Part shown: in pieces, positions 430-27,791 of the stretch | Layout: each line of letters starts with the position of its first letter | Position numbering within the stretch: position 1 is the stretch's first letter | Virus record (IMG/VR): IMGVR_UViG_3300045988_025679 | Span: 1-30,607 of that record | From: a virus | Strand: one strand, 5' to 3' | Length of the DNA stretch: 30,607 nucleotides | Notes under the pieces: model-generated | Told to the model about the DNA's origin: nothing | Databases searched by the model: none | Seen by the model: only the letters and a program-made list of their open reading frames with translations | Made by a program: the position numbers and the translations under genes

Positions 430-1524
430 TTATGCAATTTCTGTTAACGGTGTTGGGTCAACCCAAACGCCACCAATCTTGACAATATTCTTTTGAACAT
501 TCACTGCATCGACTCTGATTCTAGATACATAGACTACTGCATTTGTAGTATGCAATACATTGTCATTATATCCATCTGAGTTTGGTACTTTATCTACCAA
601 ACGAATTGGAAACCAACCACCTAGTTGAGCAAGGTATGCACATAAATCATCGCCAATTTTCTTCAATCCTTGATTACCGATTTTCATGTGTACAGATGTA
701 ACATAGCTGCCTTCATGCAGAATTTGGTCGATAACTTCTGCACTAGACTGTGTTGTTCCAACTGGTGTATGGGGGTCTGTATCAATACCCACATCATTCG
801 TCCATCCAATAGCTACTCCATTACGATCAACACGATATGGATATTTAGCACCTTTGATTACTCTACCAATTGAACCGTTCCAATCCCCTTTTAAGATTTT
901 AGAAGTTCCGTAACAGTTTACGCTTAATGTATTTGTGCAGATAGGTGTACCGACTGAATACTTTTCACCACTTGGAGTGTTTGGAGTACTTTGAGTACTT
1001 GGTGCTACTGTTTGACCATCCAATCTAGCATTTACTTCTTGTGCTAATTGAGGCATTTTCGAATGTAAATAAGGGCCAGGACAAGATGTTGCTGCGAACA
1101 TTCTATGTTCTGTCAAACTTCCAGTTGAATCACCAGTGTAGTTTAATCTGAATCCATATCGTTTACATACGTCCACGCATAGATTTACTAATGCATTCCA
1201 TGCTTTTGGTGAGATTGTCCACGTATCTGTATTATCATTAGCAATCTCAATTGTGATAGCTTGGCAATCGTTATAGTAGTTTGATGATGTCCACGCTCTG
1301 TTTTCTTCGTCAACATTTGCTACAATCGTACCATCTGAACCAATACAATAGTTTGCACTCGCATTACGTCCGCTTACTTGGAATGACTGAGCGCATCGTT
1401 CTGCAGTCCATTCGCAAGCCATATGATGAGGTGTGATTTTACATATCTTGTAACCACCACGACCACGCATATAGTTATCTGCACTAGCAGGAATATATTT
1501 ATTAGTTAAGCTTGAATATGACAT
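430..1524 (-). CDS. Endolysin: N-acetylmuramoyl-L-alanine amidase (Amidase_2/PGRP-type) with a C-terminal cell-wall-binding region
   Basis: 364-aa ORF. Motifs ITPHHMA, ASANYCIGSDGTIV..ENRAWTS, AITIEIAN and TEHRMF..TSCPG are typical of zinc amidase_2 lysins. It is the last gene of the late operon, after the holin. An AGGTG ribosome-binding site (RBS) lies 7 nt upstream. Confidence 0.85.
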   Translation of the reverse strand: MSYSSLTNKYIPASADNYMRGRGGYKICKITPHHMACEWTAERCAQSFQVSGRNASANYCIGSDGTIVANVDEENRAWTSSNYYNDCQAITIEIANDNTDTWTISPKAWNALVNLCVDVCKRYGFRLNYTGDSTGSLTEHRMFAATSCPGPYLHSKMPQLAQEVNARLDGQTVAPSTQSTPNTPSGEKYSVGTPICTNTLSVNCYGTSKILKGDWNGSIGRVIKGAKYPYRVDRNGVAIGWTNDVGIDTDPHTPVGTTQSSAEVIDQILHEGSYVTSVHMKIGNQGLKKIGDDLCAYLAQLGGWFPIRLVDKVPNSDGYNDNVLHTTNAVVYVSRIRVDAVNVQKNIVKIGGVWVDPTPLTEIA

Positions 1525-2255: not shown

Positions 2256-2480
2256 CTATCTCTCCTTACTAACTCCATAATTATCCACAATGTGCCAGTC
2301 ATCACATGCACAATTGCTGATTGTATACACGATATCGTCTGAATCTGTTAATTTGAAATCAACACCATCTTTTGTGTGGATCATGATGATTCCATCTACG
2401 ATATGCCAATATCCAGTCCAATGACTACGTGCCACCTTGTGGCCACGTGTCATAGATATAAATGCAGATGCAAAATTCAT
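2256..2480 (-). CDS. DUF2829-like small protein (the family that contains the Tad2 anti-Thoeris sponges)
   Basis: 74 aa. The N-terminus MNFASAFISMTRGHKVARSHWTG fits the DUF2829 signature (M-x-F-x-x-A...G-x-K-V-x-R-x-x-W). The C-terminal DDWHIV matches the family's DW-x-I/V ending. Confidence 0.5.
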   Translation of the reverse strand: MNFASAFISMTRGHKVARSHWTGYWHIVDGIIMIHTKDGVDFKLTDSDDIVYTISNCACDDWHIVDNYGVSKER

Positions 2481-2493
2481 ATACAGTTACCTC

Positions 2494-2742
2494 CTAGATC
2501 AACTCAACATTTTCAATCTTTGTACGAATAACAAGGATGTCCATATATCTTTTCATGGCATCTAATTGAAGATCATAGATTTCTCTTGGACAAGTCGGTT
2601 TGAAATTCAACTTTCCTTCATCCCATTTTTCGCACATAGCTTTCAATTTGTCGTGACGAATCTTTACTTGAAAATACTCGCCTTTGAATCTGTCTTTGTA
2701 ATCTGCAGAGTTCATCAACTCTACTGTTTCATTTAACTCCAT
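2494..2742 (-). CDS. Hypothetical small helical phage protein
   Basis: 82-aa ORF with a GGAGG RBS upstream. It has a weak resemblance to small helical crAss001_48-type phage proteins (..KLKAM..., ..QLDAMKRYMDIL..). No function is assigned. Confidence 0.55.
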   Translation of the reverse strand: MELNETVELMNSADYKDRFKGEYFQVKIRHDKLKAMCEKWDEGKLNFKPTCPREIYDLQLDAMKRYMDILVIRTKIENVELI

Positions 2743-2752
2743 AACTTTCCTC

Positions 2753-3001
2753 CTATAATTTAGTTACATTTAACATCACATAGCCTTCTTTGAATCCATC
2801 GTTAGTAGTGATGCTGCGAATCTGTGTCATTCTAAATAAACCAGTATCCATTTCTTTTCCTTCGTCTAACGATACTTGTTTAAATAACACATAATCTTGT
2901 TCATTGATTTGCTCATCAGTCAAATCAAGAATAATAAAATCGTGTTCTTGGAAAAAATTCCATAATTTAGTATTTAAATTGATTTCATGTGTTTTAACCA
3001 T
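2753..3001 (-). CDS. DUF3850-like (ASCH/PUA-fold) small protein
   Basis: 82 aa. THEINL at the N-terminus and GFKEGYVMLNV at the C-terminus resemble the DUF3850 pattern (HELKI ... GLKEGYVVLSI). A GGAGG RBS is present. Confidence 0.5.
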   Translation of the reverse strand: MVKTHEINLNTKLWNFFQEHDFIILDLTDEQINEQDYVLFKQVSLDEGKEMDTGLFRMTQIRSITTNDGFKEGYVMLNVTKL

Positions 3002-3044
3002 TTAAAATCCTCCTATTAATATAAAAAAAGCGAGGTAAACAAAA

Positions 3045-3938
3045 ATGCTATATTCTGACAAATTACATTCTTGGTTAAAAGAAAAGAAAATCTATCTAAA
3101 ATACAGCACTTACACAAATTATTGTAATGTGATTCATAATCACGTATTGCCAACACTTGGCACATATAAAATTGAAGAATTGAATAACGATATTCTGCAA
3201 GAGTTTATTCTTCAAAAACTTGAAAATGGTCGTAAAGATGGAAAAGGTGGCATTTCTTTTAAATATGCCAAAGACATTATTCAAATTCTGAAGTTCACAC
3301 TTCCATTTAAAATCGATATTCAACTTCCATACCATCCTCCTACGGCGGTAGAAATTTTTGAAAAAGAAAATCAAATCTCATTGATTAATCACCTCCAATC
3401 TGAGATTAATTACAAAAACTTTGGAATCCTGTTATGCATCCACACTGGAATACGCATAGGTGAACTATGCGCTTTGAAATGGTCTGATATAAACATTCAA
3501 ACCAAATTGTTAAAAATAGATAAAACCATGATACGTACATACACAAAAGAAGACGGTAGTCATCTTTCAATAACACCGCCTAAATCACGTTCTAGCACTC
3601 GTATGATTCCTCTTAACGCTTGGATAATGCATTATGCTATATTGCTTCAAGGTGATGCAGATAACTATGTATTAACGAATCGAGATAAACCGATAGAGCC
3701 TAATAAATACAGGCTTTACTACAATCGACTACTTAAAGACCTTGAACTTCCACACCTCAAATTCCACGCATTAAGACACACATTTGCAACAAGATGCATT
3801 GAATGTGGTTGTGATTATAAATCACTTAGTGAATTACTTGGCCATTCCAATGTTTCGATCACTATGAATATCTACGTTCATCCTCAAATGGAATTAAAAA
3901 GAAAATGTGTAGAATTACTTTGCGATTACTACAAGTAA
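3045..3938 (+). CDS. Tyrosine site-specific recombinase, proposed shufflon invertase (Rci/CreX-like role)
   Basis: 297 aa. It has an N-terminal SAM-like core-binding region and the catalytic signature: box I HTGIRIGELCALKWSDI, PPKSRSSTRMIPL, box II HALRHTFAT, LGHSNVSIT and nucleophile Tyr in MNIYVH (Y277). It is the only full-length plus-strand gene, and its stop codon lies 2 nt from the left inverted repeat of the cassette segment. Confidence 0.9.
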   Translation: MLYSDKLHSWLKEKKIYLKYSTYTNYCNVIHNHVLPTLGTYKIEELNNDILQEFILQKLENGRKDGKGGISFKYAKDIIQILKFTLPFKIDIQLPYHPPTAVEIFEKENQISLINHLQSEINYKNFGILLCIHTGIRIGELCALKWSDINIQTKLLKIDKTMIRTYTKEDGSHLSITPPKSRSSTRMIPLNAWIMHYAILLQGDADNYVLTNRDKPIEPNKYRLYYNRLLKDLELPHLKFHALRHTFATRCIECGCDYKSLSELLGHSNVSITMNIYVHPQMELKRKCVELLCDYYK

Positions 3939-3940
3939 AT

Positions 3941-3977
3941 GTATGTCTTTTACTACTGATTCGAGCGGTGGTGAATA
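3941..3977 (+). repeat. Recombination site B (cassette 1): GTATGTCTTTTAC core inside a 37-bp perfect inverted repeat
   Basis: GTATGTCTTTTACTACTGATTCGAGCGGTGGTGAATA is identical to the reverse complement of 5034-5070. Confidence 0.85.
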
Positions 3978-4221
3978 CTATCATAAACTTACACGTGAAG
4001 AGCTACCGAGCCATACGCATTGGATCTTAGACCAACAAACTGATGTAACCACTGCATTATATGGTAATCCATATAGTGATGTACCTTTTACGAGAGCCAC
4101 TGAACGTGCTAATAGAACTAATTATTATTGGTACGGTCAAACATGGCCAACAGGCGGAAACAAACCACACGATAATGTACAACCTTACGTGGTAACTTAC
4201 TTTTGGAGACGTATCAAGTAG
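3943..4221 (+). CDS. Silent tail-fibre C-terminal cassette 1 (92 aa)
   Basis: The cassette begins MSFTTDSSGGEYYHKLTREELPSHTH and ends HDNVQPYVVTYFWRRIK, parallel to the last 100 aa of the 629-aa fibre. There is no Shine-Dalgarno sequence before the ATG. Its orientation is opposite to the fibre gene. Confidence 0.8.
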   Translation: MSFTTDSSGGEYYHKLTREELPSHTHWILDQQTDVTTALYGNPYSDVPFTRATERANRTNYYWYGQTWPTGGNKPHDNVQPYVVTYFWRRIK

Positions 4222-4494
4222 CTATTTTACCCTTCGCCAAAAGAAAACAACTAAATATGGTTGCACGTTATTGTGTGGAATATTGCCACCAGATCCATTT
4301 GTATGAATACTATTTACATTGTGACTTTGACCATCAGAATGATGCGAACCATTAATGGCCATAAATTCCCACGGAGTAGTTGTTAAAACGCCAGACGTAC
4401 CCCATATACCAACTTCGTGTGCGTGAGCAGGCATTTCAGAATATGATAACGTATGATAGTATTCACCACCTTCAGAATTGGTTGTAAATGACAT
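4222..4494 (-). CDS. Silent tail-fibre C-terminal cassette 2 (90 aa from the internal Met)
   Basis: The homologous part starts at MSFTTNSEGGEYYHTLSYSEMPAHAH (ATG 4494) and ends HNNVQPYLVVFFWRRVK. The 20 extra codons in the ORF track (to 4554) run antisense across the cassette 3 start and are probably not meaningful. No RBS is present. Confidence 0.75.
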   Translation of the reverse strand: MSFTTNSEGGEYYHTLSYSEMPAHAHEVGIWGTSGVLTTTPWEFMAINGSHHSDGQSHNVNSIHTNGSGGNIPHNNVQPYLVVFFWRRVK

Positions 4495-4496
4495 AC
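4480..4496 (-). repeat. Recombination site C (cassette 2)
   Basis: The reverse complement reads GTATGTCATTTACAACC and shares the GTATGTC-W-TTTAC core with the other three sites. Confidence 0.75.
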
Positions 4497-4514
4497 CTAT
4501 ATAACCGATTAAAA

Positions 4515-4531
4515 GTATGTCATTTACATCC
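4515..4531 (+). repeat. Recombination site D (cassette 3)
   Basis: GTATGTCATTTACATCC. It forms a 14-bp perfect inverted repeat with site C across an 18-bp spacer (4497-4514). Confidence 0.75.
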
Positions 4532-4765
4532 GGAAAAACATACGGAGAATACAAGCACCAACTAACAATACAAGAAATGCCTAATCATGCGCATAAATTT
4601 AATGACTGCGCTTGGATTGACGGAAAAGGAAATATCCAATCCGCATCAAATAACTCATGGTTTAATGGTGGCTATATGAGTAATACAACAAACACAGGAG
4701 GAAACCAAGCACATAATAATTTACAGCCATCCATTGTAACTTACTTTTGGAAACGAATTAAATAA
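4517..4765 (+). CDS. Silent tail-fibre C-terminal cassette 3 (82 aa)
   Basis: MSFTSGKTYGEYKHQLTIQEMPNHAH ... HNNLQPSIVTYFWKRIK. There is no RBS. Its stop codon abuts the stop codon of the expressed fibre gene. Confidence 0.8.
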   Translation: MSFTSGKTYGEYKHQLTIQEMPNHAHKFNDCAWIDGKGNIQSASNNSWFNGGYMSNTTNTGGNQAHNNLQPSIVTYFWKRIK

Positions 4766-6655
4766 TCATTGCGTTCTTCGCCAAAAGAACGTGGTTATGT
4801 AGGGTTGAACGTTATTATGATGCACATTATCTCCTGCCCAACCAGTATAAACAAACGCAGAAGCATCTGTGGCATTAACCTTTTCATTTGGAGTGACATA
4901 GTTTTTTGTGCTTCTATCAATCATTACTCCAAAACTGTCAATAGTTCGTTCCTCCCAACCAGCATATCCTTTAACCATCAATCTCACACTATGATGATGT
5001 TTCGGCATTTCAGTTTCTAGCAGTTTGTGCTTATATTCACCACCGCTCGAATCAGTAGTAAAAGACATACTTGTACTACCATCGTTTCCAGTACCTTCTC
5101 CGACCAAAGTTCGACCTTGACCGAACTGTTCCCAAGTTCCACCCAAGAATGTTCCTGGGTTCTTTTTATCGTATGTGATATAGACTGCGCCAACCGGGAA
5201 TATCTTATTTAAGAAAATAGGAGCTACAATATCACCTAGTACAGTTAATGTATCTTTTTGATTAGCGTCTTGACCAAAGAGCGTCAATGATCTTCCATCT
5301 TTACCAAAGTTTATCAATGAGTAAGCAGGAGCTACAGTAAATATTTGCCATGAATAATCACTCATGAACTTATCCTTAACGCCGAACGCAACCTCATAGG
5401 AACTTGTTGCAGATGTGAATAAATTACCTGCTTTGTAATCTTGTTCAAGCGTGTAGTTGTTATCCCACGAATTTATTTTCGTCCATGAACTAGCACCACT
5501 TGCTCGATATTGAATATAGAATGATGTTACATTCTTATTGCTTAAACTAGTAAATCCAACTTTGAAGTGTAATAAAGCATATGTACCACTTGCCTCATCA
5601 ATCGCATAACTTGAGTTAGCACGTTTTGCAGTTACATTCGTTAAGCTTGGGGGACTGTATGCAGATACAGTGACCGAACCACTCTTAGATGAAGTTCGAC
5701 CACGTGAATCTGTAACTGTGATTGTGTACGACAACTTGCCACTTCCCTGTACAGTACCTGTAGTAAATGAACTATCATTATATGTTTGTCCTTCAAATTT
5801 AGTTGATACAGATGTAACAGTTGAGCCTTGACTACCACTTGTAGCAATTGAGAACTTTAATCTTGATTGACTTTGAACATGTTGACCTATTCCTACGCAG
5901 ATTGAATTTGTATCAGATATCGAGACCGTTCCAACACTAGGAACGACTCCACTTCTTACTTTAATTGTTGCATTTACTGATTTTGAGCCAACCGAAGTTG
6001 AACCACTGAATGTTTCTAATGTAAATGTAGCAATTCCGCTTATCGAATTAGGTAAGTCCTTTTCCCATGCGGTAGGAATCGTATAAGAAAAAGTGGGTGT
6101 TAATGTCCCACTTATCGTTGTTAATTCACTTGTTTTACCATTCCATGTTGCGTAGATTTTATGTGTAAAGTTTTTTGAAGCACTCGAGCCATTAATATTT
6201 ATAGTGTTACCACATTCAATACTAGGACTATCAATAGATATACTTGATGCTCTTGGAATAGTTGTCAATTTAACTGTACCACTGCAAGAACCAGTAATAG
6301 GTGCATAATATCCAGAGTTACTTCCACTGAAAGATGCACTTACCGAAATTGTTTTTGATCCATCTGCATCATGTGAAATAGTTACTGCTCCACTTTTTAC
6401 ACCGACAAGTGTATTTACTGGTACATTAGGTGTAAAGCTTTGGTTTAACACTTGAGTACCATTCACGGATACTGTAAATGTTTCAGGAATTCCGTTGTGT
6501 GTATGGTACTGCGTATTTGAACGAATACCGACCCACCACTCTACATATGATGTGTTATTTTCAACAGAATAAGATATTTCATTGATTCGCAGTATCAACG
6601 AATACTTATCCCACTGGCCACTACCAATTTGTATTCCGCCACTAAATTCTGCCAT
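4766..6655 (-). CDS. Tail fibre / receptor-binding protein with a switchable tail-collar-like C-terminal tip
   Basis: 629 aa, immediately downstream of Tal. The middle is Ser/Thr-rich and beta-like. The C-terminal region IFPVGAVYITYDKKNPGTFLGGTWEQFGQGRTLVG ... GGEYKHKL..EMPKHHH ... HNNVQPYITTFFWRRTQ fits the tail-collar/fibre-tip family pattern. Confidence 0.85.
   Translation of the reverse strand: MAEFSGGIQIGSGQWDKYSLILRINEISYSVENNTSYVEWWVGIRSNTQYHTHNGIPETFTVSVNGTQVLNQSFTPNVPVNTLVGVKSGAVTISHDADGSKTISVSASFSGSNSGYYAPITGSCSGTVKLTTIPRASSISIDSPSIECGNTININGSSASKNFTHKIYATWNGKTSELTTISGTLTPTFSYTIPTAWEKDLPNSISGIATFTLETFSGSTSVGSKSVNATIKVRSGVVPSVGTVSISDTNSICVGIGQHVQSQSRLKFSIATSGSQGSTVTSVSTKFEGQTYNDSSFTTGTVQGSGKLSYTITVTDSRGRTSSKSGSVTVSAYSPPSLTNVTAKRANSSYAIDEASGTYALLHFKVGFTSLSNKNVTSFYIQYRASGASSWTKINSWDNNYTLEQDYKAGNLFTSATSSYEVAFGVKDKFMSDYSWQIFTVAPAYSLINFGKDGRSLTLFGQDANQKDTLTVLGDIVAPIFLNKIFPVGAVYITYDKKNPGTFLGGTWEQFGQGRTLVGEGTGNDGSTSMSFTTDSSGGEYKHKLLETEMPKHHHSVRLMVKGYAGWEERTIDSFGVMIDRSTKNYVTPNEKVNATDASAFVYTGWAGDNVHHNNVQPYITTFFWRRTQ
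5034..5070 (-). repeat. Recombination site A, inside the expressed tail-fibre gene
   Basis: This is the reverse complement of 3941-3977. It lies at codons ..STS-MSFTTDSSGGEY.., exactly where similarity to the cassettes begins. Confidence 0.85.
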
Positions 6656-6659
6656 TCAA

Positions 6660-9600
6660 TCACCCTACTTTCTTGAAATCTAAAGATCCATTTGCTCTTG
6701 GAACGAATCCAAATGCACCAATTTTCAATGACTGCGTAAATTGCCCATCTGTAATGTACATTGTTTGGTCGTTTATATATGTTACCTTTGCACCGTTCTT
6801 TTGAATCGACCACTCTTCATTTGTAATCTTAGTCTTAAATGCACTGTTTGATTTACCTAAAGTTAATCCATCGTTATCAAACGACATATAACTGTTTACG
6901 TTATCTGCAGTTTGTTTTAAACCATCCAATCTACCATTCACACTGCTGATTTGACCATTCATTTCATTTTTAGCATCAGTCACGCTTTGATTAATTGACC
7001 ACGTAAAATCGCTCTTAGTTTGGCTAAACTGAGTAGATACTTCTTCTTTATAATGATTCAAAGCCGAATTTGATACGTAAGTTTCACTAACCTTTGAAGT
7101 AATTTCATTTGCCTTAGTCTCAATTGCAGATTGACGAGTGGTACGTTCTTCGTTTATTGCATCGTCTATATCTTCAGGAGCAGGAGTCCAATCTGTAGAA
7201 ATTGTGCCGATTTCTAATTTTGGTTTTCTAATATGGATAGAACCATTCTTGAATAATGCAAATCGAACACCGAAAAATTTAACATCATTGAGGGTGACAT
7301 TATCTACACCTATGTTCATATTTGACAAATCACCCTTTTTGGTTAAAACAACTTTGACCCATTCACCATTCTTTTTATCACCTTTAATTTTGACAAAAGA
7401 GTCTGAAAGATATGTATCGTGATAATAAATTCTTGCGTTATTTGCATTATAATACTCTAATATCACTGGTGACGGTATATCCCACTTTGACCAATCATCG
7501 ACTTTTAAATCAAACGATAGCGTAAAATTTTGGTTTAATAACAAATTCATGTTTACTTTTTTTGAATACATACTATATAAATTCAATGATGTCGAATTAG
7601 AAGTACTACAGGATATCGTAGAATGAGAATCATCTTTAGTGATTTTCCAACCACCACTATTATTCCAATCTGTAAAACTAGAGCTATTTCTCAATAAATT
7701 CCTACCGCCAATTTGTAGATTATCAACCTTATTACTAGTTTCAGTAATGGACTTTGCTTGTAATTTAATAGCATCGGAATTTTGTTCGATTTTAGTTGTG
7801 TTAGAAGTAACTTTATTCGTTAAATCTGCTAAATCTTTCTGAGCTTGTTCTGCTTTCTGCTTTGCATCATCCGCCACTCCCTGAGCCGTCTTTGCATTAT
7901 TGATTGCCGTAGTTGCGTTACCTTGAGCCTTAGTTGCATCAGATTGAGCTTTCTCCACTGCAGTTTCTGCGTTTGTTAAACGAGTTTGAGCTTTTGTGAT
8001 TTCGCTCTCAGTCGCATCAACTCTACCAGTCACTGATTCTAGATTAGCTTTTGCATCCGCTAATTCCTTGTTAGCATTGTCTAAATTTAATTGAGCACTG
8101 TCTGCCTTTTGTTTAGCTTCATCTGCTAATGACTGAGCACTCTGTGCATTTGTAATTGCTTGAGTAGCAGTTGATTGTGCTTGCGTTGCCTTTTTTGTTG
8201 CTTCAGTAATATCTAACTGAGCTTGAGTTGTATCTGATTGCAATCTTTCAATTGAACTTGCTTGAGTTGATATTGTATCTGCAGTTTGTTCAAACTTTGT
8301 GTTCATACTTCCTTCAAGTGTTGTTAAATCACTCTTAGAAGCATAATTTTGAGAAACCGTAGTCGATAGTTCACCTACTTTCTCTTCGATTTCAGTTGTG
8401 ACATCTGCATGAATAGATTTTGATTCAGTAGTTAAATCAACTTTTGTAGCATACGTTTCTTTTACAGTAGCAATTTCTCCTGCATTGGCATTTGCCTTAT
8501 CAACTGCATCTTGAATCTGTTGCTTTGAATCATCGATATCTCCTTTAATCGCATCAATCTGTTTCTGAGTGTTACCAGTACTAGTATTTGCTTCTTGTGC
8601 TAGTTGCATAGCTTCACTTGATTGAGTGTTAGCAGTATTAGCTAATTCATTCGCTTTTGTTGCATCTGCCTGAGCTTGAGTTGCTTTATCAACTGCTTCT
8701 TTGGATTGCACATTTGCTTGAGATACTTGTGTATGGATTACACCAATCTTTGCATCAATCTCATTCCACGTGTTATCAAATATCGCTTTCGTGTACTTAA
8801 TTTCACTTGGATTAGCATACGTACACTTCCATCTTTTCCAAAGGAACTTATCACTTTGATAAACAACATTACCAACAAACCACTCACCACCGTTTAATTC
8901 AGTTTGTGATGTTGAATAATAGAACTGTTCCTCTGCACTTACAAATGATTGACCGTCCTCACCCTTAATTGCACTCCATCTGTATTTTGTTGGGTCATCA
9001 CTGCCATATTGCTTTGAGTCAGAATACTGACCAATAAATTTACGATTTGATTCTGTCAAACTAAAATCAACACGACCATCTGAACTGTTGGCATAGGCAA
9101 TATGCACATATGCACTTGTACCATTCTGACCGTCTTGTAATCGCATTACAGTGACTTCTGCACTTGCTTTAAGTATTTCACCACTCATTGCTTTAAATCG
9201 ATATACGGCCTTTTCCGTGAAGTCTGAAGCGTTGACTGTGATTGTTTGACTTGTTGATATTTGATCGTCGTCTTTATACCAAATAATTGAATACTTAGAT
9301 GTGATATCAACTCCATCATTCTTAACAATTGCAGTTAATTGAGTCGAATCTGAATCAGTCTTAAATAGAATTCCATTTGAAGATACAATTGAGCCTTCAT
9401 AAACTTTCTTTAACTCAATCATCTTGTTCATTTCACTGATCAGAGCCGAACTAATCTGCGATTGCTTTTCTTCAAAGTTATCAAAGATAGTTTTGCATTT
9501 CTCTGAATCTGTAAAACAAATCTCTTGTTCTGTGATTCGTGCTTCTAAATATAAAGTAGGACTATACTCCGCATCTTCAATCGTGAACGTATCACCGATA

Positions 9601-10571
9601 TCCGCATCAATATATGCATCTACATCATATGTAACTTTAGGAACACAATTCTTTTTCAATTGAGCTAGTGCTTGACCATATAAGGTTTCTACACTGTCTG
9701 TTTCATAAGACCACACTAGCACTGCATACATATCGTTTGAATGATTTGTTAATAACGTACTAGGAAATCTATCTCTAGATTGAGGTGCAAGTATATTGTT
9801 ACCTTGAACTTTATACAAAATATTTCCATTTGAATCTTTTACAACACGGCCACTAATCGAGTTAAGTTGTAACCCATTATTACCCGTAGGTCTGATACCT
9901 GTATACAACTCTGTAATATCACTTGTTTTAGTGATTCCGTAAACATCATTAGGATATCTTAAGATCGTGCTACGCTTATCACTTCCCATTCCTTGAACGG
10001 AATCTGAATGAGCTCTGTAAATATTCAACACAAAATTCTTCAAAGAATAATCATCATTCAATTGAGTTACGAACTCTAATTCTGCATCAAATACATTTGC
10101 AATTGAATACAATCGAGCTAGTACAGTATCGCTACCAGTCCACTCATGCGTGATACGTTTGTCTGATACCTCATTTTTGCCAATTACGAACGATTTCTCA
10201 AATCCATACGCATTTACATATTCTGCAAATGACATAGCTCTAGGAGCTTTATAAGCATCTACATATTCATTCGTTAATTCAAGGCAAAGGCCATAGGCGG
10301 TAACATTTGTTGTGTCACCACCTTTTTCTACGTTCATGATAGTTAAGTAGTAGCCTTTGTTTTTTCTTGTAAAGCTCAGTTTATTTCCTTCAACTAAAAA
10401 TGCTGCATCATCATGTGCAGTCAATGTAGTAAATTCGAATGTATACGATGAGCCTTTTAAATAAGTATGCAATGTTTCATCAAAGTAATGCATTGCACTA
10501 GGTACTGTGTTGTCTAAAAAAGCTAGAACTTTGTCATAAGGAGTTAATACTGCTATTCTGATTTGTTCCAT
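6660..10571 (-). CDS. Tal-type tail tip protein (phage minor structural protein / prophage tail endopeptidase N-terminal domain) with a long coiled coil and a CBM-like module
   Basis: About 1300 aa, located after Dit. The ORF opens at 10580, but ATG 10571 has better GGGAGG spacing and overlaps the Dit stop (TAATG). A long Ala/Gln/Thr-rich coiled coil is followed by the IGGRNLLRNS... module typical of carbohydrate-binding extensions. Confidence 0.8.
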   Translation of the reverse strand: MEQIRIAVLTPYDKVLAFLDNTVPSAMHYFDETLHTYLKGSSYTFEFTTLTAHDDAAFLVEGNKLSFTRKNKGYYLTIMNVEKGGDTTNVTAYGLCLELTNEYVDAYKAPRAMSFAEYVNAYGFEKSFVIGKNEVSDKRITHEWTGSDTVLARLYSIANVFDAELEFVTQLNDDYSLKNFVLNIYRAHSDSVQGMGSDKRSTILRYPNDVYGITKTSDITELYTGIRPTGNNGLQLNSISGRVVKDSNGNILYKVQGNNILAPQSRDRFPSTLLTNHSNDMYAVLVWSYETDSVETLYGQALAQLKKNCVPKVTYDVDAYIDADIGDTFTIEDAEYSPTLYLEARITEQEICFTDSEKCKTIFDNFEEKQSQISSALISEMNKMIELKKVYEGSIVSSNGILFKTDSDSTQLTAIVKNDGVDITSKYSIIWYKDDDQISTSQTITVNASDFTEKAVYRFKAMSGEILKASAEVTVMRLQDGQNGTSAYVHIAYANSSDGRVDFSLTESNRKFIGQYSDSKQYGSDDPTKYRWSAIKGEDGQSFVSAEEQFYYSTSQTELNGGEWFVGNVVYQSDKFLWKRWKCTYANPSEIKYTKAIFDNTWNEIDAKIGVIHTQVSQANVQSKEAVDKATQAQADATKANELANTANTQSSEAMQLAQEANTSTGNTQKQIDAIKGDIDDSKQQIQDAVDKANANAGEIATVKETYATKVDLTTESKSIHADVTTEIEEKVGELSTTVSQNYASKSDLTTLEGSMNTKFEQTADTISTQASSIERLQSDTTQAQLDITEATKKATQAQSTATQAITNAQSAQSLADEAKQKADSAQLNLDNANKELADAKANLESVTGRVDATESEITKAQTRLTNAETAVEKAQSDATKAQGNATTAINNAKTAQGVADDAKQKAEQAQKDLADLTNKVTSNTTKIEQNSDAIKLQAKSITETSNKVDNLQIGGRNLLRNSSSFTDWNNSGGWKITKDDSHSTISCSTSNSTSLNLYSMYSKKVNMNLLLNQNFTLSFDLKVDDWSKWDIPSPVILEYYNANNARIYYHDTYLSDSFVKIKGDKKNGEWVKVVLTKKGDLSNMNIGVDNVTLNDVKFFGVRFALFKNGSIHIRKPKLEIGTISTDWTPAPEDIDDAINEERTTRQSAIETKANEITSKVSETYVSNSALNHYKEEVSTQFSQTKSDFTWSINQSVTDAKNEMNGQISSVNGRLDGLKQTADNVNSYMSFDNDGLTLGKSNSAFKTKITNEEWSIQKNGAKVTYINDQTMYITDGQFTQSLKIGAFGFVPRANGSLDFKKVG

Positions 10572-12097
10572 TATAACCATGCCTCCCTAATTCTAGCCTT
10601 TACTATTGGTTTTGATTCTGACCAACTTGAGCACGTAGTCTTTATCTCTGTAGTTCCTACTGGAGCTTTAAAATACTTAGTTTCTAAAACCTCATCTTGA
10701 GGTCTATACATTCCGTTTACATAAACGTGCGATGATTTACCATCAATTGTAATTTTCGTACCATTAGGATATCTATTAGGAATATCTCTCCATTTTGATA
10801 CATTGTTTTTCGTGAAGTTGATTACATCAAAGCCCATCATACTCATTAGTTGATTACCGCCTCTGTTACCCCATTGCTTGAATGCAATCTGAATCTTGGC
10901 ACACTTCATATTTGCAATTTCTGGGATATAATAATTGTAATATCCTCCGTAATAGAAGAAGCGGATATTTCCGCCTTCTTTTAAAATATCGCAATGTCCC
11001 CAATTCCAGTACCAAGGATTTTGAGATTGTAAATGAGAAGTAGTATATGAGAAGTTTCTTAACATTTTACCATTCGCCCAAAACTCATAGTGACCTGTAT
11101 TTCCAACTGTATCTGTCTTGTACCAGTTACAACCGCAAATCAGTTTATTATCTGCAGTTAAGAAGTTGATACACATTTCTCCTGTTTGCCCCATTAGACC
11201 TGCATAAAACAACAAATGAAAATAACAATAGAAGTTCTTAGATCCACTTGAATCTCCATTTGAATCTGCAGGTATTACCAAGGTTCTTAATCCACCGCTC
11301 GCAGACCCTTTTTTTGTTCCAACAGTTCCAAATCCAATAAACTTTTGATTAAACCAAGTGTGTTCGGCTAATGTACCATTCGAACCGTACTGAGGATGCA
11401 TTACATCCGTTCCACTAGTGTCATCTGCACAATTATAGAAATTGTTGATGCTAACTAAATGTTCGCTTTGTTGATATGTTTCTGAATCAAGTTCTTCGAT
11501 TTTTCCATACTGCATTACTCCTTCAGTTGATACGATACCAATATATCCAGTTTCAGATGTTACCTGAACCTCATAATCAATACTTACAGGTACAGTTCCT
11601 TCATTGACAATGTTTAACACTCCATCCGTTGCAGTGAACTCTTTTTCTGCAGTTGAATATTTCCTAGGGTCTGAGCAATAGATTTCGATTTCACCGATTA
11701 CGTTATTACTTCCGCCATCAACTTGTGTGTTAGATGTCTTAGTTCCAATGAAATACTTGTCGCTTTCATCATTAAAAATGACTTTTACTTGCTCGCCACT
11801 CAACAATTTATTCATCTTGTTGTAAGCTTCTCGAAATTCTCTGTTTCCTCTTGCTCTCAACTGATATTTAACAGTAATCGTTCTTGCAGGAGTTGTTTTA
11901 TATCTGTAATAAGAACCATCCATTCCATCAATTTCAGTATGTTTTACTTCTGATTCCATCAACTCACGTCCTGTTACAGAAAGTGTACGATATCCATCTA
12001 TTTCATTTTCTAAATATACGCCATTATATGACATGGCTTCTGTCGGTAGGTTAGTACCGACGATGCCACTATTTACTGTATTTACGAATGCATACAT
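10571..12097 (-). CDS. Distal tail protein (Dit), extended form
   Basis: 508 aa, directly after the tape measure gene. The N-terminal siphovirus-tail pattern (..GYRTLSVTGRE....IDGMDGSYY...ARTITVKY) is followed by a large C-terminal insertion. Confidence 0.75.
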   Translation of the reverse strand: MYAFVNTVNSGIVGTNLPTEAMSYNGVYLENEIDGYRTLSVTGRELMESEVKHTEIDGMDGSYYRYKTTPARTITVKYQLRARGNREFREAYNKMNKLLSGEQVKVIFNDESDKYFIGTKTSNTQVDGGSNNVIGEIEIYCSDPRKYSTAEKEFTATDGVLNIVNEGTVPVSIDYEVQVTSETGYIGIVSTEGVMQYGKIEELDSETYQQSEHLVSINNFYNCADDTSGTDVMHPQYGSNGTLAEHTWFNQKFIGFGTVGTKKGSASGGLRTLVIPADSNGDSSGSKNFYCYFHLLFYAGLMGQTGEMCINFLTADNKLICGCNWYKTDTVGNTGHYEFWANGKMLRNFSYTTSHLQSQNPWYWNWGHCDILKEGGNIRFFYYGGYYNYYIPEIANMKCAKIQIAFKQWGNRGGNQLMSMMGFDVINFTKNNVSKWRDIPNRYPNGTKITIDGKSSHVYVNGMYRPQDEVLETKYFKAPVGTTEIKTTCSSWSESKPIVKARIREAWL

Positions 12098-14919
12098 TAT
12101 CTGTTACCTCGCAATCTCTCATTAAGCTTTGAATTTCTGTTAATCTCATTCTGATTTGCTCTATATGTTGCACGTGCAAATTCACGATCATTAATGTAAA
12201 GTGGTGTTTCAACCGTTAATTGAGCGTTGCTAGTGTAATCGTATTCTGCATTCATATCACTCACAACACCTCCAAAAGTCATTTTAGGAGCGCTCATTAG
12301 TGGAAGGTATAATAACTTCTCTGCAGCCTTTTTAACCTGAGGAACCATTCCTAAAATACCATTGCGATATCCTTTACCCCACCACATACCATCTTTATCT
12401 GCAATTTTAGATGGTGAGCCAATCTTAGCTTTTGCACGAATTGCGGCATCTGCAGCTGCTGCTAAACTAGCGGCCGCAGCTCTAACAGTACCTTCACTAG
12501 CTCTTAAACCATTCGCCAATCCTTGACCAATCATCTGACCACAATATTGTGCTTTTGACTGACACGCATTGAATGCACTGATAATGTTATTGCATGAAGA
12601 TCGTGCTATTGACACACTTTTTGATAAGCTTCCTTTAAGTCCTGATGTAAACTTAGTGCCCATTGCAGTTCCTGAAGTTGAAGCCCTAGCTTCTGCTGCA
12701 GACATTGCACTGATAATGTTATTGCATGAGTTTGTCACTGTAGCTGACGTACTGGCAAATGTAGTACCTACCATACCAATAGCAGTTACAAGGGCCATCA
12801 TCTGAGTACCAGCGCTTCCTATGCCTACAGAAGCTGCAGATATAGCTCCTATTCCGGTTGCTACTGCAGCTAAGCTAGCTCCCATATCAAACAGATTTAA
12901 ACCAGTAATAATCTGAATACCTTTAGCTAATTCTTTAAATCCTTTACCAGCATATAATGCCGATTGGCCAATAGATTCAATCACTCCTGATACTGAGTTT
13001 AAGATTCCACTTACTGTTTCACCGAATGATGTAATTACACCACTGATACCTTCAAATACTTCTTTGATAACAGGTCCAAACGCAAAAACAACATCTGCAA
13101 CACCCTGAAGAACCATTTGTAAACCTTCACCTTGCGAACCAACTAATGCCATTGCAGCACCAGTTGCTAGAATAGCCGCTGCCAGCGCAAGCCATGTAGT
13201 TGGTGGCACCATTGCGATTGCAGTTCCTAATCCTGTAAATGCAGTTGCTAAACCTTGCCCAATGCCTTGTGCTACTGTACTGATTGCAGTACCAAATGAT
13301 TCAATAACAGTGCCTACTCCTTCCAAAGCTGATTTAATGCCTTGTCCGATACCTTGAAAAGCAGTACTAATAGCTTCTCCTAGACCTGTTATAATTCCTT
13401 TTACACCTTCACATACCGAAGTAATAACATTTGAGATTCCTTCAAATGCAGAATTAATAATCTGTGCAGCTTTAGATGTTTTCTGAGCAGTTCGCATTGT
13501 TGCATCACCAATACCGTCACTTGGAGTACCATTTTGTGGTAATTGTCCAGGTATTTCTTGAGTTGGTTTTTCTCCTAATCCTCTGATTTTGTCAATAATT
13601 GATTTTAACTTTGAATATCCACCTTTAGCCGTGCCAACGACACCACTAATCATGCTAGATACTTTGCTACCGACTTTGATTGCAACAAATGCTCCTGCCA
13701 ATAATTTGACTGCACTTGCAAATCTCTTAACATCTTCCGTTTTAAGATTTGCTATGAAATCTGCAATTTTGCCAGTTACATCTTCTACTTTTGCAATGAT
13801 ATTTCCAATGTCTTGTCCTAACTGCTCAAAGACTTTACTGTCTTGCAACTTATCCGTTACATTTCCAATAGCATCTTTGACTTTGTCGAACAATGTAATA
13901 GCGTTTTGTACTGCATCTGTCTTCATAAATCCATCATAGAATTGTTGGACCATAGCTTTAGCATTGTTTGCTCTATCTGCAAGCCAATCCATAGCTTTTG
14001 ATACATTCTCCAAGACTTCAGGCTTAAAGTCCCATGTCAAACCATCATCCTTGGATTCCATGATTGAATTTCTAAAGTCATAGATTTTAGATTTAATCTT
14101 TTCTAGATTATCAACTAATCCACCCATGGCTTTTGACTTCAACATGTTATTCATTGCAGACAAGAACCCTTGTTCTAAGTTTTGTACTGCACTCTTGATG
14201 TTAGTCATAGAAGTTTTAATACCTTTAGATGCTTCTAATGCAGTTTCTGCAAAGCCACCTGTTTCTGTATCACATTCAATCATTGCATCATTAAACTGAT
14301 CAAATGTAATCGTTCCATTCTGTAATGCATCGTACAATTCATTTGCATTACCACTTGTAATACCTAGTTTCTTTGCAACTTTAGTTAATGCTGGTGCCAT
14401 TGTTTCTTGTAAGGTTCTCCATGATTGCATATCAACTGTACCTTTAGCAAGCATCTGTGAATACTGTTGTAATCCACGTGATGCATCTTCTGAGCTTGAA
14501 CCGCTCGCTAAAAACGCATGATTTAATGCAATTGTAGTATCAGTTGCCTTATCTATATTACTTGTAACGGCAGCCAACGACTTAGATGTTGTTACAACAT
14601 CTGCCAAGTTTGTAGGTAAGCCTTGTACTGACTGATTTAACTTTGCAACACTCTTTTGAGATTGTTCAATTGAAAACCCCAAAGACTTCATAACTTTTGG
14701 ATAGGATTGCATGGTATCAAATCTTGTGATAGCACCATCCATGGATGAGCTAAGAACGTTCATTGTTGCGCCAATAGCTTTTGTTATGCCGACACCTGCA
14801 ACGATAGATTTAACTCTATCACCAAACGACTGACACGCTCCTATAGCTTTGTTCATGGTTGAGGTCATATTCTTATCGGTTGCCGTTAGTATGGCTTCAA
14901 CACTAAAACTTTCTGCCAT
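12097..14919 (-). CDS. Tail tape measure protein
   Basis: 940 aa, helical and Ala/Gly/Ile-rich with repeated G-x-G/IG segments, located after the G/GT chaperone pair. A GGAGGG RBS is present. Confidence 0.9.
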   Translation of the reverse strand: MAESFSVEAILTATDKNMTSTMNKAIGACQSFGDRVKSIVAGVGITKAIGATMNVLSSSMDGAITRFDTMQSYPKVMKSLGFSIEQSQKSVAKLNQSVQGLPTNLADVVTTSKSLAAVTSNIDKATDTTIALNHAFLASGSSSEDASRGLQQYSQMLAKGTVDMQSWRTLQETMAPALTKVAKKLGITSGNANELYDALQNGTITFDQFNDAMIECDTETGGFAETALEASKGIKTSMTNIKSAVQNLEQGFLSAMNNMLKSKAMGGLVDNLEKIKSKIYDFRNSIMESKDDGLTWDFKPEVLENVSKAMDWLADRANNAKAMVQQFYDGFMKTDAVQNAITLFDKVKDAIGNVTDKLQDSKVFEQLGQDIGNIIAKVEDVTGKIADFIANLKTEDVKRFASAVKLLAGAFVAIKVGSKVSSMISGVVGTAKGGYSKLKSIIDKIRGLGEKPTQEIPGQLPQNGTPSDGIGDATMRTAQKTSKAAQIINSAFEGISNVITSVCEGVKGIITGLGEAISTAFQGIGQGIKSALEGVGTVIESFGTAISTVAQGIGQGLATAFTGLGTAIAMVPPTTWLALAAAILATGAAMALVGSQGEGLQMVLQGVADVVFAFGPVIKEVFEGISGVITSFGETVSGILNSVSGVIESIGQSALYAGKGFKELAKGIQIITGLNLFDMGASLAAVATGIGAISAASVGIGSAGTQMMALVTAIGMVGTTFASTSATVTNSCNNIISAMSAAEARASTSGTAMGTKFTSGLKGSLSKSVSIARSSCNNIISAFNACQSKAQYCGQMIGQGLANGLRASEGTVRAAAASLAAAADAAIRAKAKIGSPSKIADKDGMWWGKGYRNGILGMVPQVKKAAEKLLYLPLMSAPKMTFGGVVSDMNAEYDYTSNAQLTVETPLYINDREFARATYRANQNEINRNSKLNERLRGNR

Positions 14920-26951: not shown

Positions 26952-27148
26952 TTAGTCTCCTCAAATCCATCGTACGAACTAGCATACATACATTTGTATG
27001 CTCGCAAGTCCTTTTTCTTTTGTTCCAGTTCATACATCAGCTGTTCGTTCTGGTGTTCCAGACTGTTGATCCTATCGGACACGATAACGGAATACAGCAT
27101 CATCGCGCCTACCCCTCCGACAAAGAACCCAATCATAAAGTAGATCAC
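26948..27148 (-). CDS. Small membrane protein with a coiled-coil tail
   Basis: 66 aa with an N-terminal transmembrane helix IYFMIGFFVGGVGAMMLYSVIV. It has a GTGA overlap with the upstream stop. Confidence 0.55.
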   Translation of the reverse strand: MIYFMIGFFVGGVGAMMLYSVIVSDRINSLEHQNEQLMYELEQKKKDLRAYKCMYASSYDGFEETK

Positions 27149-27375
27149 CCAACCACCTCACAGTTTCTTAAAATCTCATTGATTGACACATTATCCGGAA
27201 CATTTCTAAAAAGTCCATATTTCTTCACTTCCAATAAAGACACATATCTGTTTATTGGTTTATTTCCAAGATTTCCTTCGAAATTCAGCAATATACAATA
27301 TTCATTTTGTCTTAGTCTGTATAAAGGATCTTTACTTTCTCTTCTAGGCATCATAAACCCTGCCTGTCGTATCAT
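27145..27375 (-). CDS. Hypothetical protein, paralogous to the C-terminal domain of the upstream gene
   Basis: Start refined to ATG 27375 (ATGA overlap, GAGGT RBS). The protein ends ..YGLFRNVPDNVSINEILRNCEVVG, compared with ..KGYFKDVDTNISIREILGNCEVIK in the 27372-27791 product. Confidence 0.6.
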   Translation of the reverse strand: MIRQAGFMMPRRESKDPLYRLRQNEYCILLNFEGNLGNKPINRYVSLLEVKKYGLFRNVPDNVSINEILRNCEVVG

Positions 27376-27791
27376 TTGATTACCTCGCAATTGCCTAAGA
27401 TTTCACGAATTGAAATATTTGTATCAACGTCTTTAAAATATCCCTTTTCGCGCATTTTAAACAAATGTATTTGATTTGCAATGTTATTATACGTTTTATA
27501 ATCTTTATGCACGCTTAACAAATCATACTCAAATTGAGTTAGCTTATATTTTGGCTTTTCATATGGTTTATTTAACCATTCTTTAATCTTTTCACTGCAT
27601 CCATATCCTGTACTAAATCCACACTCGCTACAACTAACATCACTGCATTGACAAGGCTTTCCGTCGACTAGTGCAAAACAGTAGCCGGAATTTTCTATGA
27701 TTTCATCTTTAAAATGTTCATAATTTGTTTCCTGTTTTATTTCTTGTTTTTCTTCTTCAAACATCTCTTTAGCAGTTTTCATCTTCGCCAT
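27372..27791 (-). CDS. Hypothetical Cys-rich protein
   Basis: 139 aa with the cluster CQCSDVSCSECGFSTGYGC. Its C-terminal roughly 58 aa are duplicated as the next gene. Confidence 0.6.
   Translation of the reverse strand: MAKMKTAKEMFEEEKQEIKQETNYEHFKDEIIENSGYCFALVDGKPCQCSDVSCSECGFSTGYGCSEKIKEWLNKPYEKPKYKLTQFEYDLLSVHKDYKTYNNIANQIHLFKMREKGYFKDVDTNISIREILGNCEVIK

Follow-up and report, generated by a model that had tools for sequence, protein, structure and literature searches.

Evidence for a multiple-inversion tail-fibre shufflon in a temperate siphovirus of Erysipelotrichaceae

The IMG/VR virus record IMGVR_UViG_3300045988_025679 provides a stretch of 30,607 nucleotides (nt), referred to here as the window, which represents the late region of a temperate siphovirus transcribed from the minus strand. 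Positions 3045-6655 carry a tail-fibre gene, three silent fragments resembling the end of that gene and a gene for a tyrosine recombinase. An initial annotation, made from the sequence alone, proposed that this arrangement is a shufflon exchanging the receptor-binding C-terminus of the fibre among four variants. We examined the proposal by comparing the locus with its relatives in public collections; the coordinates of the features are given in Table 1.

The fibre gene of 629 amino acids (aa) lies where the annotation placed it and matches the Pfam families DUF859 (6.5e-44) and Gp10_C (2.8e-22). Its constant part matches the tail protein family phrog_372, and the last 170 aa of the fibre align with the C-terminal domain of T4 gp10 (PDB 2FKK, 4.6e-6), which is the nearest solved structure. 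This match spans the proximal part of the domain (IFPVG...GQGRTLVG) and its last strand (N-QPY-T-F-W-R). The three tip-like open reading frame (ORF) fragments are also present as annotated. Each matches the distal part of Gp10_C only (~53-139 of 139), so that the silent cassettes are domain tips without the proximal third, and with the expressed tip they form a + - + - pattern. The mechanical ORF of cassette 2 extends to 4554 (TTG start); the cassette proper begins at the ATG at 4494. Aligned fibres are invariant up to ...GNDGSTSMSF and variable thereafter except for GGEY-H, E-P-H-H and a C-terminal QP...W. This pattern indicates that a cassette exchanges the distal body of the domain, while the elements docking it to the constant part are retained. 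The last 189 aa were modelled with AlphaFold from a 40-sequence alignment, but the result was too poor to be used (mean predicted local distance difference test score 54, predicted template modelling score 0.27). A consensus scan of positions 2400-7000 gave promoter matches no commoner than in shuffled sequences and no terminators, which tests only weakly the earlier statement that the fragments have no promoter and no ribosome binding site.

The recombinase (297 aa) was described as catalytically complete, and the residues R137, K180, H241, R244, H267 and Y277 are indeed present, with the R-K-H-R-H/W-Y hexad in the conserved order. Pfam identifies Phage_integrase (1.6e-28, covering positions 10-170 of the 172 of the catalytic domain) and Phage_int_SAM_3 (3.8e-11), without an arm-binding domain. 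The stop codon ends 2 nt before the core of the first cassette-head site (site A), again as annotated. To place this association in context, ~150 related loci were assembled from recombinase scans of gut metagenomes, IMG/VR and genomes. Their configurations were classified at the protein level; classification with DNA probes was too strict and missed many loci. Recombinase and sites are strictly linked in this set. A complete recombinase (61-100% identity) followed by sufficient sequence is available for 83 distinct loci; in 81 of these, 2-8 core sites occur in the next 4 kb, and the first is mostly within ~11 nt of the stop codon.

The products that inversion would be predicted to generate are found in public assemblies, both as chimeric fibres and as inverted loci with breakpoints in the repeats. 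A protein search returned fibre relatives of 629/630, 621, 619 and 611 aa, the lengths expected when the 529-aa constant part is joined to the expressed tip E or to cassettes 1, 2 and 3 (c1, c2 and c3), respectively. The 621-aa fibre P0006 equals the constant part of the window plus cassette 1, residue for residue. Fibre P0011 carries the cassette 2 tip (90/90) on a constant part identical to that of the window at 516 of 529 positions, and P0041 carries the cassette 3 tip (80/82) on one identical at 508 of 529, so that the constant parts of fibres with these two tips are 96-98% identical to that of the window. The cassette 3 tip is also the expressed one in loci L007/L285, and the 100-aa segment expressed as tip E in the window is a silent cassette beside the recombinase in L001/L280, L285 and others.

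The corresponding rearrangements are visible in the DNA. Locus L001 (gut metagenome sample ERZ27295422), which encodes P0006, is 99.6% identical to the window over 7.6 kb of one flank and 99.1% over 1.9 kb of the other. Between them the block 3934-5077 stands in the opposite orientation at 99.65% identity, and the alignments overlap in the repeats, which corresponds to inversion between sites A and D. In L003 (ERZ27229522; 97-98% identical) the segment 3941-4496 is inverted, corresponding to inversion between sites A and B. With the expressed tip named first and orientation given by the sign, the gene orders are E, c3-, c2+, c1- in the window; c1, c2-, c3+, E- in L001; and E, c3-, c1+, c2- in L003. 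The tips of the ~150 loci form 58 clusters at 75% identity, and reciprocal states recur among them: t1 expressed with t2- and t2 expressed with t1-, t5 with t1- and t1 with t5-, and t15 with t8- and t8 with t15-. Six-cassette arrays are found in differing permutations (e.g. L022 and L100), and the form in the mouse isolate 'Firmicutes bacterium M10-2' is minimal, with a single spare cassette in addition to the recombinase and a fibre of 754 aa.

All four tips of the window begin with a shared site, a further claim of the annotation that the sequence bears out. The motif GTATGTCWTTTAC occurs exactly four times in the window, only at cassette heads and in alternating orientation; 0.14 occurrences would be expected in 30.6 kb, and none of 100 shuffles reached four. 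In coding sense each tip start reads ...GT ATG TCW TTT AC..., translated M-S-F-T. The 37-base pair (bp) inverted repeat is likewise perfect (3941-3977 against 5034-5070) and sits in a 56-nt repeat of 89% identity (3934-3989 and 5022-5077). Logos built from 171-259 sites give the consensus GTAnAn / GTATGTC / nTTTAC, in which imperfect 6-bp inverted arms surround an asymmetric heptamer of the same length as the overlap region of a tyrosine recombinase. The right arm nTTTAC is conserved and the left arm GTAnAn only ~60-80% conserved. The GT at -2/-1 is invariant in 259/259 sites, the non-coding flanks of silent cassettes included, and A is present at -4 in ~97% of sites. In the Phe codon the third, synonymous position is T throughout, and in the Ser codon the third position is free.

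The position of the crossover was mapped by tabulating the upstream context and the head of each window tip type over all loci. Each tip retains its own head from +5 (the W of the site) onward, whichever flank precedes it, and each occurs behind the constant part, the recombinase flank and both inter-cassette flanks, cassette 3 included. Position -3 goes with the flank and not with the tip. As the tip determines the bases from +5 and the flank determines that at -3, exchange takes place within the invariant GTATGTC (-2 to +4). The head of cassette 3 has nothing beyond the 13-nt core in common with the others, and the placement of this cassette behind the constant part is therefore not attributable to ordinary homologous recombination.

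Table 1. Features of the fibre locus and of the surrounding late region in the window.
Feature	Position	Strand	Comment
Tyrosine recombinase, 297 aa	3045..3938	+	
Fibre gene, 629 aa	4766..6655	-	
Fibre constant part, 529 aa	5069..6655	-	DUF859 + proximal third of T4 gp10 C-terminal-like domain (Pfam)
Expressed tip E, last 100 aa of fibre	4766..5068	-	
Silent tip cassette 1, 92 aa	3943..4221	+	Gp10_C 54-139
Silent tip cassette 2, 90 aa	4222..4494	-	Gp10_C 53-139
Silent tip cassette 3, 82 aa	4517..4765	+	Gp10_C 55-139
Site A, 19 bp, core GTAAAT-GTATGTC-TTTTAC	3935..3953	+	Crossover heptamer 3941-3947; recombinase stop codon in left arm
Site B, core GTATGTCATTTAC	4484..4502	-	Crossover heptamer 4490-4496; breakpoint of 3941-4496 inversion in L003
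Site C, core GTATGTCATTTAC	4509..4527	+	Crossover heptamer 4515-4521
Site D, core GTATGTCTTTTAC	5058..5076	-	Inside expressed gene; crossover heptamer 5064-5070; translated S-M-S-F-T
Whole invertible region	3941..5070	.	Between sites A and D
Terminase small and large, SPP1-type portal, head genes	in window	-	
Tape measure	12097-14919		
Dit (Sipho_tail)	10571-12097		
Tal-like protein, 1306 aa	6660-10580		
Small genes, then holin		 	After the fibre
Amidase_2 endolysin	430-1524		After the holin

Genome matches of this phage family are to Holdemanella, Floccifex and other Erysipelotrichaceae (phylum Bacillota). We consider it probable, at roughly 0.88, that the locus is a multiple-inversion tail-fibre shufflon in a temperate siphovirus of Holdemanella. 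The fibre gene would consist of a fixed part of 529 codons and an exchangeable tip of 82-100 codons, the latter comprising the distal two-thirds of the gp10 C-terminal-like domain. The recombinase would pair sites of opposite orientation, cleave on either side of GTATGTC and invert the DNA between them, thereby fusing another tip in frame to the fixed part. A single step between A and D or between C and D would install cassette 1 or cassette 3, and two steps, such as A with B followed by A with D, would install cassette 2. Pairs in direct orientation (A-C and B-D) would delete cassettes, which would account for relatives with two cassettes. The predicted outcome is a phage or lysogen population with mixed fibre tips and hence mixed receptor specificities. 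That the 297-aa recombinase performs the catalysis is inferred; by analogy with other fibre switches, the tips probably differ in receptor specificity or host range.

Several relatives carry arrays that differ from that of the window in number or layout. In L002:7588-8189 (ERZ28578059 scaffold_338) the expressed tip E is followed by c3- and then by the recombinase flank, and the contig ends 36 nt later; recombination between sites A and C, which are in direct orientation, would produce such an array. Two-cassette arrays with c2 expressed and c1- occur in L005/L290/L293 and also have the form expected after deletion between direct sites; for none of these arrays is such ancestry provable. The loci L005, L006, L290 and L291 have two cassettes, always c2 expressed with c1-, and a 252-aa recombinase, and L296 and L297 have a recombinase of 136 aa. 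Such two-cassette relatives with a truncated recombinase may be naturally locked derivatives that arose after deletion. A second topology, distinct from the alternating head-to-head layout of the window, is represented by many relatives, among them L110, L039, L044 and L066, in which several sites of the same orientation are spaced 210-300 nt apart (e.g. 8+ 219+ 509+ 1050-) and form tandem short cassettes facing the fibre.

The alternative that stands up best, improbable as it appears, is that the permutations arose by general homologous recombination between the cassette heads, through host RecA or phage RecT/YqaJ, with the recombinase uninvolved. The heads at A and D would offer such a process the 37 identical nt and the 56 nt at 89% described above, and those at A and B an 18-nt identical run, yet cassette 3, which shares only GTATGTC-A-TTTAC, occurs behind every flank type, including the constant part. 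RecT, YqaJ and RusA are encoded in the phage family, and the head mosaic of L003/L292/L298, described below, needs an exchange outside the core. Homology alone, however, would not explain why flank-specific and tip-specific bases part exactly at the 7-bp heptamer, why the core is invariant at synonymous and non-coding positions alike, or why the sites are linked to the recombinase gene as closely as they are in the 81 loci, directly after its stop codon in most.

Less likely again is that the recombinase serves as the prophage integrase/excisionase or as a Xer-like resolvase, the inversions being the work of a host invertase acting in trans or mere relics. The best families of the protein agree with such a role: it aligns with positions 170-446 of the 611 in phrog_1 ('integrase'), its best PDB match is Tn1549 Int (6emy, 1.6e-16), and XerA and XerC follow, although it falls below every NCBIfam cut-off (XerA 72.9 bits against 220, XerC 60.9 against 335 and XerD 45.3 against 330). 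No other recombinase is visible in the window. Against this, the enzyme is without an arm-binding domain, the core motif of the sites is found nowhere else in the window, and its gene, with the fibre gene on one side and the lysis genes on the other, is located ~3 kb inward from the prophage end and not beside an att site. The window itself forms the final 30,607 nt of the 36,258-nt ENA contig ERZ1303419 NODE_442. Related contigs continue past the endolysin into the bacterial genes PadR, lspA and rluD, which indicates an integrated prophage that terminates a few hundred nt beyond the endolysin.

A separate integrase is moreover encoded by relatives, in which it was found by walking outward from the repressor gene. 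These proteins (359-374 aa) combine Arm-DNA-bind_4, SAM_3 and Phage_integrase domains and lie beside the repressor. In L253 a 374-aa integrase with the arm DNA-binding domain shares an IMG/VR contig with the shufflon and with a shufflon recombinase 94% identical to that of the window; integrase and recombinase are 27% identical to each other. Locus L243 encodes the 359-aa form. A phmmer search for a second integrase in the early regions of relatives returned none, in loci that stop at the repressor. Integration and excision had been named in the initial annotation as the function that would undermine the shufflon, and the presence of a dedicated arm-binding integrase in relatives argues against it. 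The lysogeny module of L253 (6923-9716) consists of the repressor (+), a 268-aa PemK-like gene (+) and an oppositely oriented integrase gene that immediately precedes the endolysin. The contig seems to span the joined phage ends, and attP would then be expected within ~400 nt of int, on one of its two sides.

The assembly graph suggests that alternative states coexist in single samples. Five of the six contigs with the exact endolysin of the window stop 9-39 nt past the recombinase stop codon. Two of these, L231 (MEGAHIT, k = 119) and L234 (MEGAHIT, k = 127), end exactly at 3977, the last base of the 37-mer shared by cassette 1 and tip E, and L233 ends just before the W of the site. In L235 the recombinase flank is joined to a head with W = A, and the contig ends where the heads of cassettes 2 and 3 diverge. 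The sample of L234 (ERZ917703) also contains a separate contig of 1220 nt that matches window 3851-5070 at 100% identity, has exactly 127 nt, the value of k, in common with L234 as an overlap and ends at the outer edge of site D. Since k far exceeds the 37-nt repeat, such forks need reads that join one flank to two different bodies. More broadly, of 45 contig ends in the 5 kb that follow the recombinase gene, 35 are no more than 1.5 kb from it and 12 no more than 150 nt. These within-sample forks support active switching and do not prove it.

That the alternative configurations are assembly artefacts, caused by mis-joins at inverted repeats in short-read metagenomes, is very hard to credit, for although the comparison loci are all metagenome contigs and one scaffold (L286/L294) resembles a chimera of two states, the exact repeat of 37 nt is shorter than the final assembler k (119-141) and cannot alone cause mis-joins, the same states recur across independent samples and different assemblers, reciprocal states are found for many cassette sets, and forks at k = 127 mean that reads must hold both junctions. 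The scaffold in question (ERZ28658570 scaffold_6914, 5083 nt) reads c1 expressed, c2-, E+, c3-, c1+, c2- and then recombinase, with no N gaps; its doubled cassettes 1 and 2 reflect either a genuine duplication or the fusion of two coexisting states during assembly.

Several observations weigh against a shufflon driven by the recombinase. In L003/L292 (2575-2847) and in L298 the body of cassette 2 carries a head of the cassette 1/E type (MSFTTDSSGGEYYH-TLSY...), a combination that implies an exchange or gene conversion beyond the core on its downstream side, in the 18-nt GGTGGTGAATACTATCAT. Judged from these sequences, not every event is a clean crossover at the heptamer. The longer repeats could also be substrates for RecT/YqaJ, which the phage encodes, and the proposed site has short arms of 6 bp. 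All evidence of activity is comparative or derived from the positions of assembly breaks, and the same forks would appear if two fixed phage lineages were mixed in a sample. Finally, the window contig ends before the lysogeny module and the separate integrase is seen in relatives only, so that its presence in this exact phage would be an extrapolation from them.

The recombinase had been called the only full-length plus-strand gene of the window. A plus-strand ORF of 119 aa does exist at 27020-27379; it fills a gap between minus-strand genes where gene callers place a 76-aa minus-strand gene in relatives, has no Pfam match and is probably not a gene, which leaves the recombinase as the only convincing one. 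Between the endolysin and the host genes, L230, L231 and L234 carry a cluster resembling those for ribosomally synthesized and post-translationally modified peptides, with a helix-turn-helix/tetratricopeptide repeat regulator, a radical S-adenosylmethionine/SPASM enzyme and an ABC transporter. This cluster (L230:11525-16365 and L231:3978-8818) would lie just left of the window; L232, L233 and L235 are without it and have a PemK-like gene directly after the endolysin.

More distant recombinases, at 33-38% identity and from Bacteroidales and faecal phage contigs, were considered as neighbours of further fibre shufflons and rejected. One of them, 38% identical and without an arm-binding domain, is encoded at 6342-7304 of L015 (5555-8105; uncultured Bacteroidales RUG720, ONWU01000007). 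It lies between 750-nt inverted repeats formed by two convergent genes for OmpA-like porins, and upstream of each porin gene is a gene of ~1000 aa that matches no Pfam family. This is not a fibre shufflon, and L015 may be another surface-protein locus controlled by an invertase. The recombinase of L300 sits between two palindromic hairpin copies and does not belong to a fibre shufflon either.

Characterization of this locus would be useful in several respects. Programmed host-range switching has been studied almost wholly in Gram-negative phages with serine invertases, and fibre switches based on tyrosine recombinases have so far been reported only for Actinomycetota prophages and, recently, for a Bacteroidota phage; the window adds phages of gut Bacillota. 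Public metagenomes provide unusually clear natural evidence here, in the form of an exact chimera, reciprocal configurations, forks within single samples and crossover mapping at base level. The locus offers a testable case of how temperate phages of gut commensals that are common, though poorly studied, track variation of the host surface. It also carries a warning for virome studies, as assemblies break at the shufflon and a single phage can account for fibres of 611, 619, 621 and 629 aa. The recombinase, which is small and has a defined site, could in addition become a tool. If the enzyme is orthogonal to Rci and Rin, the recombinases of two known shufflons discussed below, it would provide a compact new invertase/site pair for synthetic biology in Gram-positive bacteria.

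The first reading of the locus had taken this combination of features to be uncharacterised. That part does not hold, as the same combination has been described for prophages of Bifidobacterium breve/longum, under the name Rin shufflon (Mavrich et al. 2018, PMC6109161), and found again in prophages of Eggerthella lenta (PMC8778435). In the Rin system the array is bordered by the gene for a XerD-like tyrosine recombinase that has no arm-binding domain, and the canonical integrase is encoded separately at another place (PMC6109161). Both systems belong to temperate siphoviruses of Gram-positive gut bacteria and have a recombinase of this type flanking the array, as do most of the 83 relatives of the window; the separate integrase has its counterpart in the window family, in L253 and L243. 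Both also have a gene for a receptor-binding protein (RBP) or fibre with a constant N-terminal part, followed by several C-terminal cassettes that are promoterless in Rin and apparently so in the window. At the head of each cassette stands a short asymmetric repeat, and inversions map to it, in our case by comparative evidence; host-range variation is the role proposed for both. They differ in host phylum, Bacillota (Erysipelotrichaceae) for the window and Actinomycetota for Rin, and in the variable part, which is the distal gp10_C-like portion of a DUF859 fibre in the window, whose cassettes match Gp10_C only (Pfam), and a TP901-1-like RBP head in Rin. The sites also differ, GTATGTCnTTTAC in the window against the 11-bp rix TTCCCTAACCC, which does not occur in the window even when one mismatch is allowed. 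Comparison of the two recombinases refers to domain architecture.

The R64/IncI shufflon (Rci, sfx, pilV) shares with the window a tyrosine recombinase encoded at the end of the array and multi-segment inversions that exchange the C-terminus of a single adhesin-like protein. The organisation of the site is also alike, R64 sfx combining a 7-bp core with a right arm that is conserved and a left arm that varies. In R64, however, the target is a conjugative-pilus adhesin of a plasmid, whereas in the window it is a phage fibre. Rci has an extra C-terminal domain, thought to restrict the R64 shufflon to inversions, whereas the window recombinase ends at residue 297, only 20 residues past Y277. The two-cassette relatives in the window family, unlike R64, resemble deletion products.

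A tail-fibre shufflon of BV01-like Phocaeicola vulgatus phages was described in a 2026 preprint, with all configurations seen in reads (PMC13596623). It resembles the window in having a recombinase that flanks a multi-cassette invertible region (~1.7 kb in the BV01-like phages) overlapping the distal fibre gene of a temperate gut phage, and short directional motifs between the cassettes. Its host is a member of the Bacteroidota and its motif is TGGGAGAACT, and the window differs in both. The BV01-like locus has three non-homologous cassettes that yield six isoforms through different stop positions, whereas the cassettes of the window are homologous to one another and each is a complete domain tip.

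The inversion systems of Mu (Gin), P1 (Cin) and p15B (Min) likewise exchange the C-terminal part of a tail fibre, by a programmed inversion that in their case alters host range, and Min is also a multi-segment shufflon. These employ serine invertases, dependent on a Fis-bound enhancer, in Gram-negative myoviruses or plasmid prophages, in contrast to the tyrosine recombinase of the window; no resolvase-family match was found among the ORFs examined in the region 3045-6655. The type I hsdS shufflons do combine a small tyrosine recombinase with adjacent inverted partial cassettes that are swapped into one expressed gene. Their target is the specificity subunit of a cellular defence system, and not a virion protein as in the window.

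A megablast search of 3045-6655 against GenBank phages gave no match. At the protein level the recombinase matched at up to 38% identity, to uncultured faecal phage contigs, and the fibre reaches ~30% identity with DUF859 proteins from Streptococcus phages, T12 among them. No relative in culture is available. A literature search, which did not cover all journals, returned no description of such a system for Bacillota phages, Holdemanella phages or DUF859/gp10_C fibres. We regard the odds as evenly balanced that these loci represent an independently evolved and unusually large shufflon family of Erysipelotrichaceae phages (Holdemanella, Floccifex and the mouse isolate M10-2), with a 297-aa invertase, a 19-bp site with a 7-bp overlap, 2-8 sites per locus and a shared pool of at least 58 tips. 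If so, the sampling of host receptors by these phages in the human gut would be combinatorial. In its design the locus is a Bacillota version of a shufflon, with a different fibre domain and a different site; it follows the same logic as Rin and is not a new principle.

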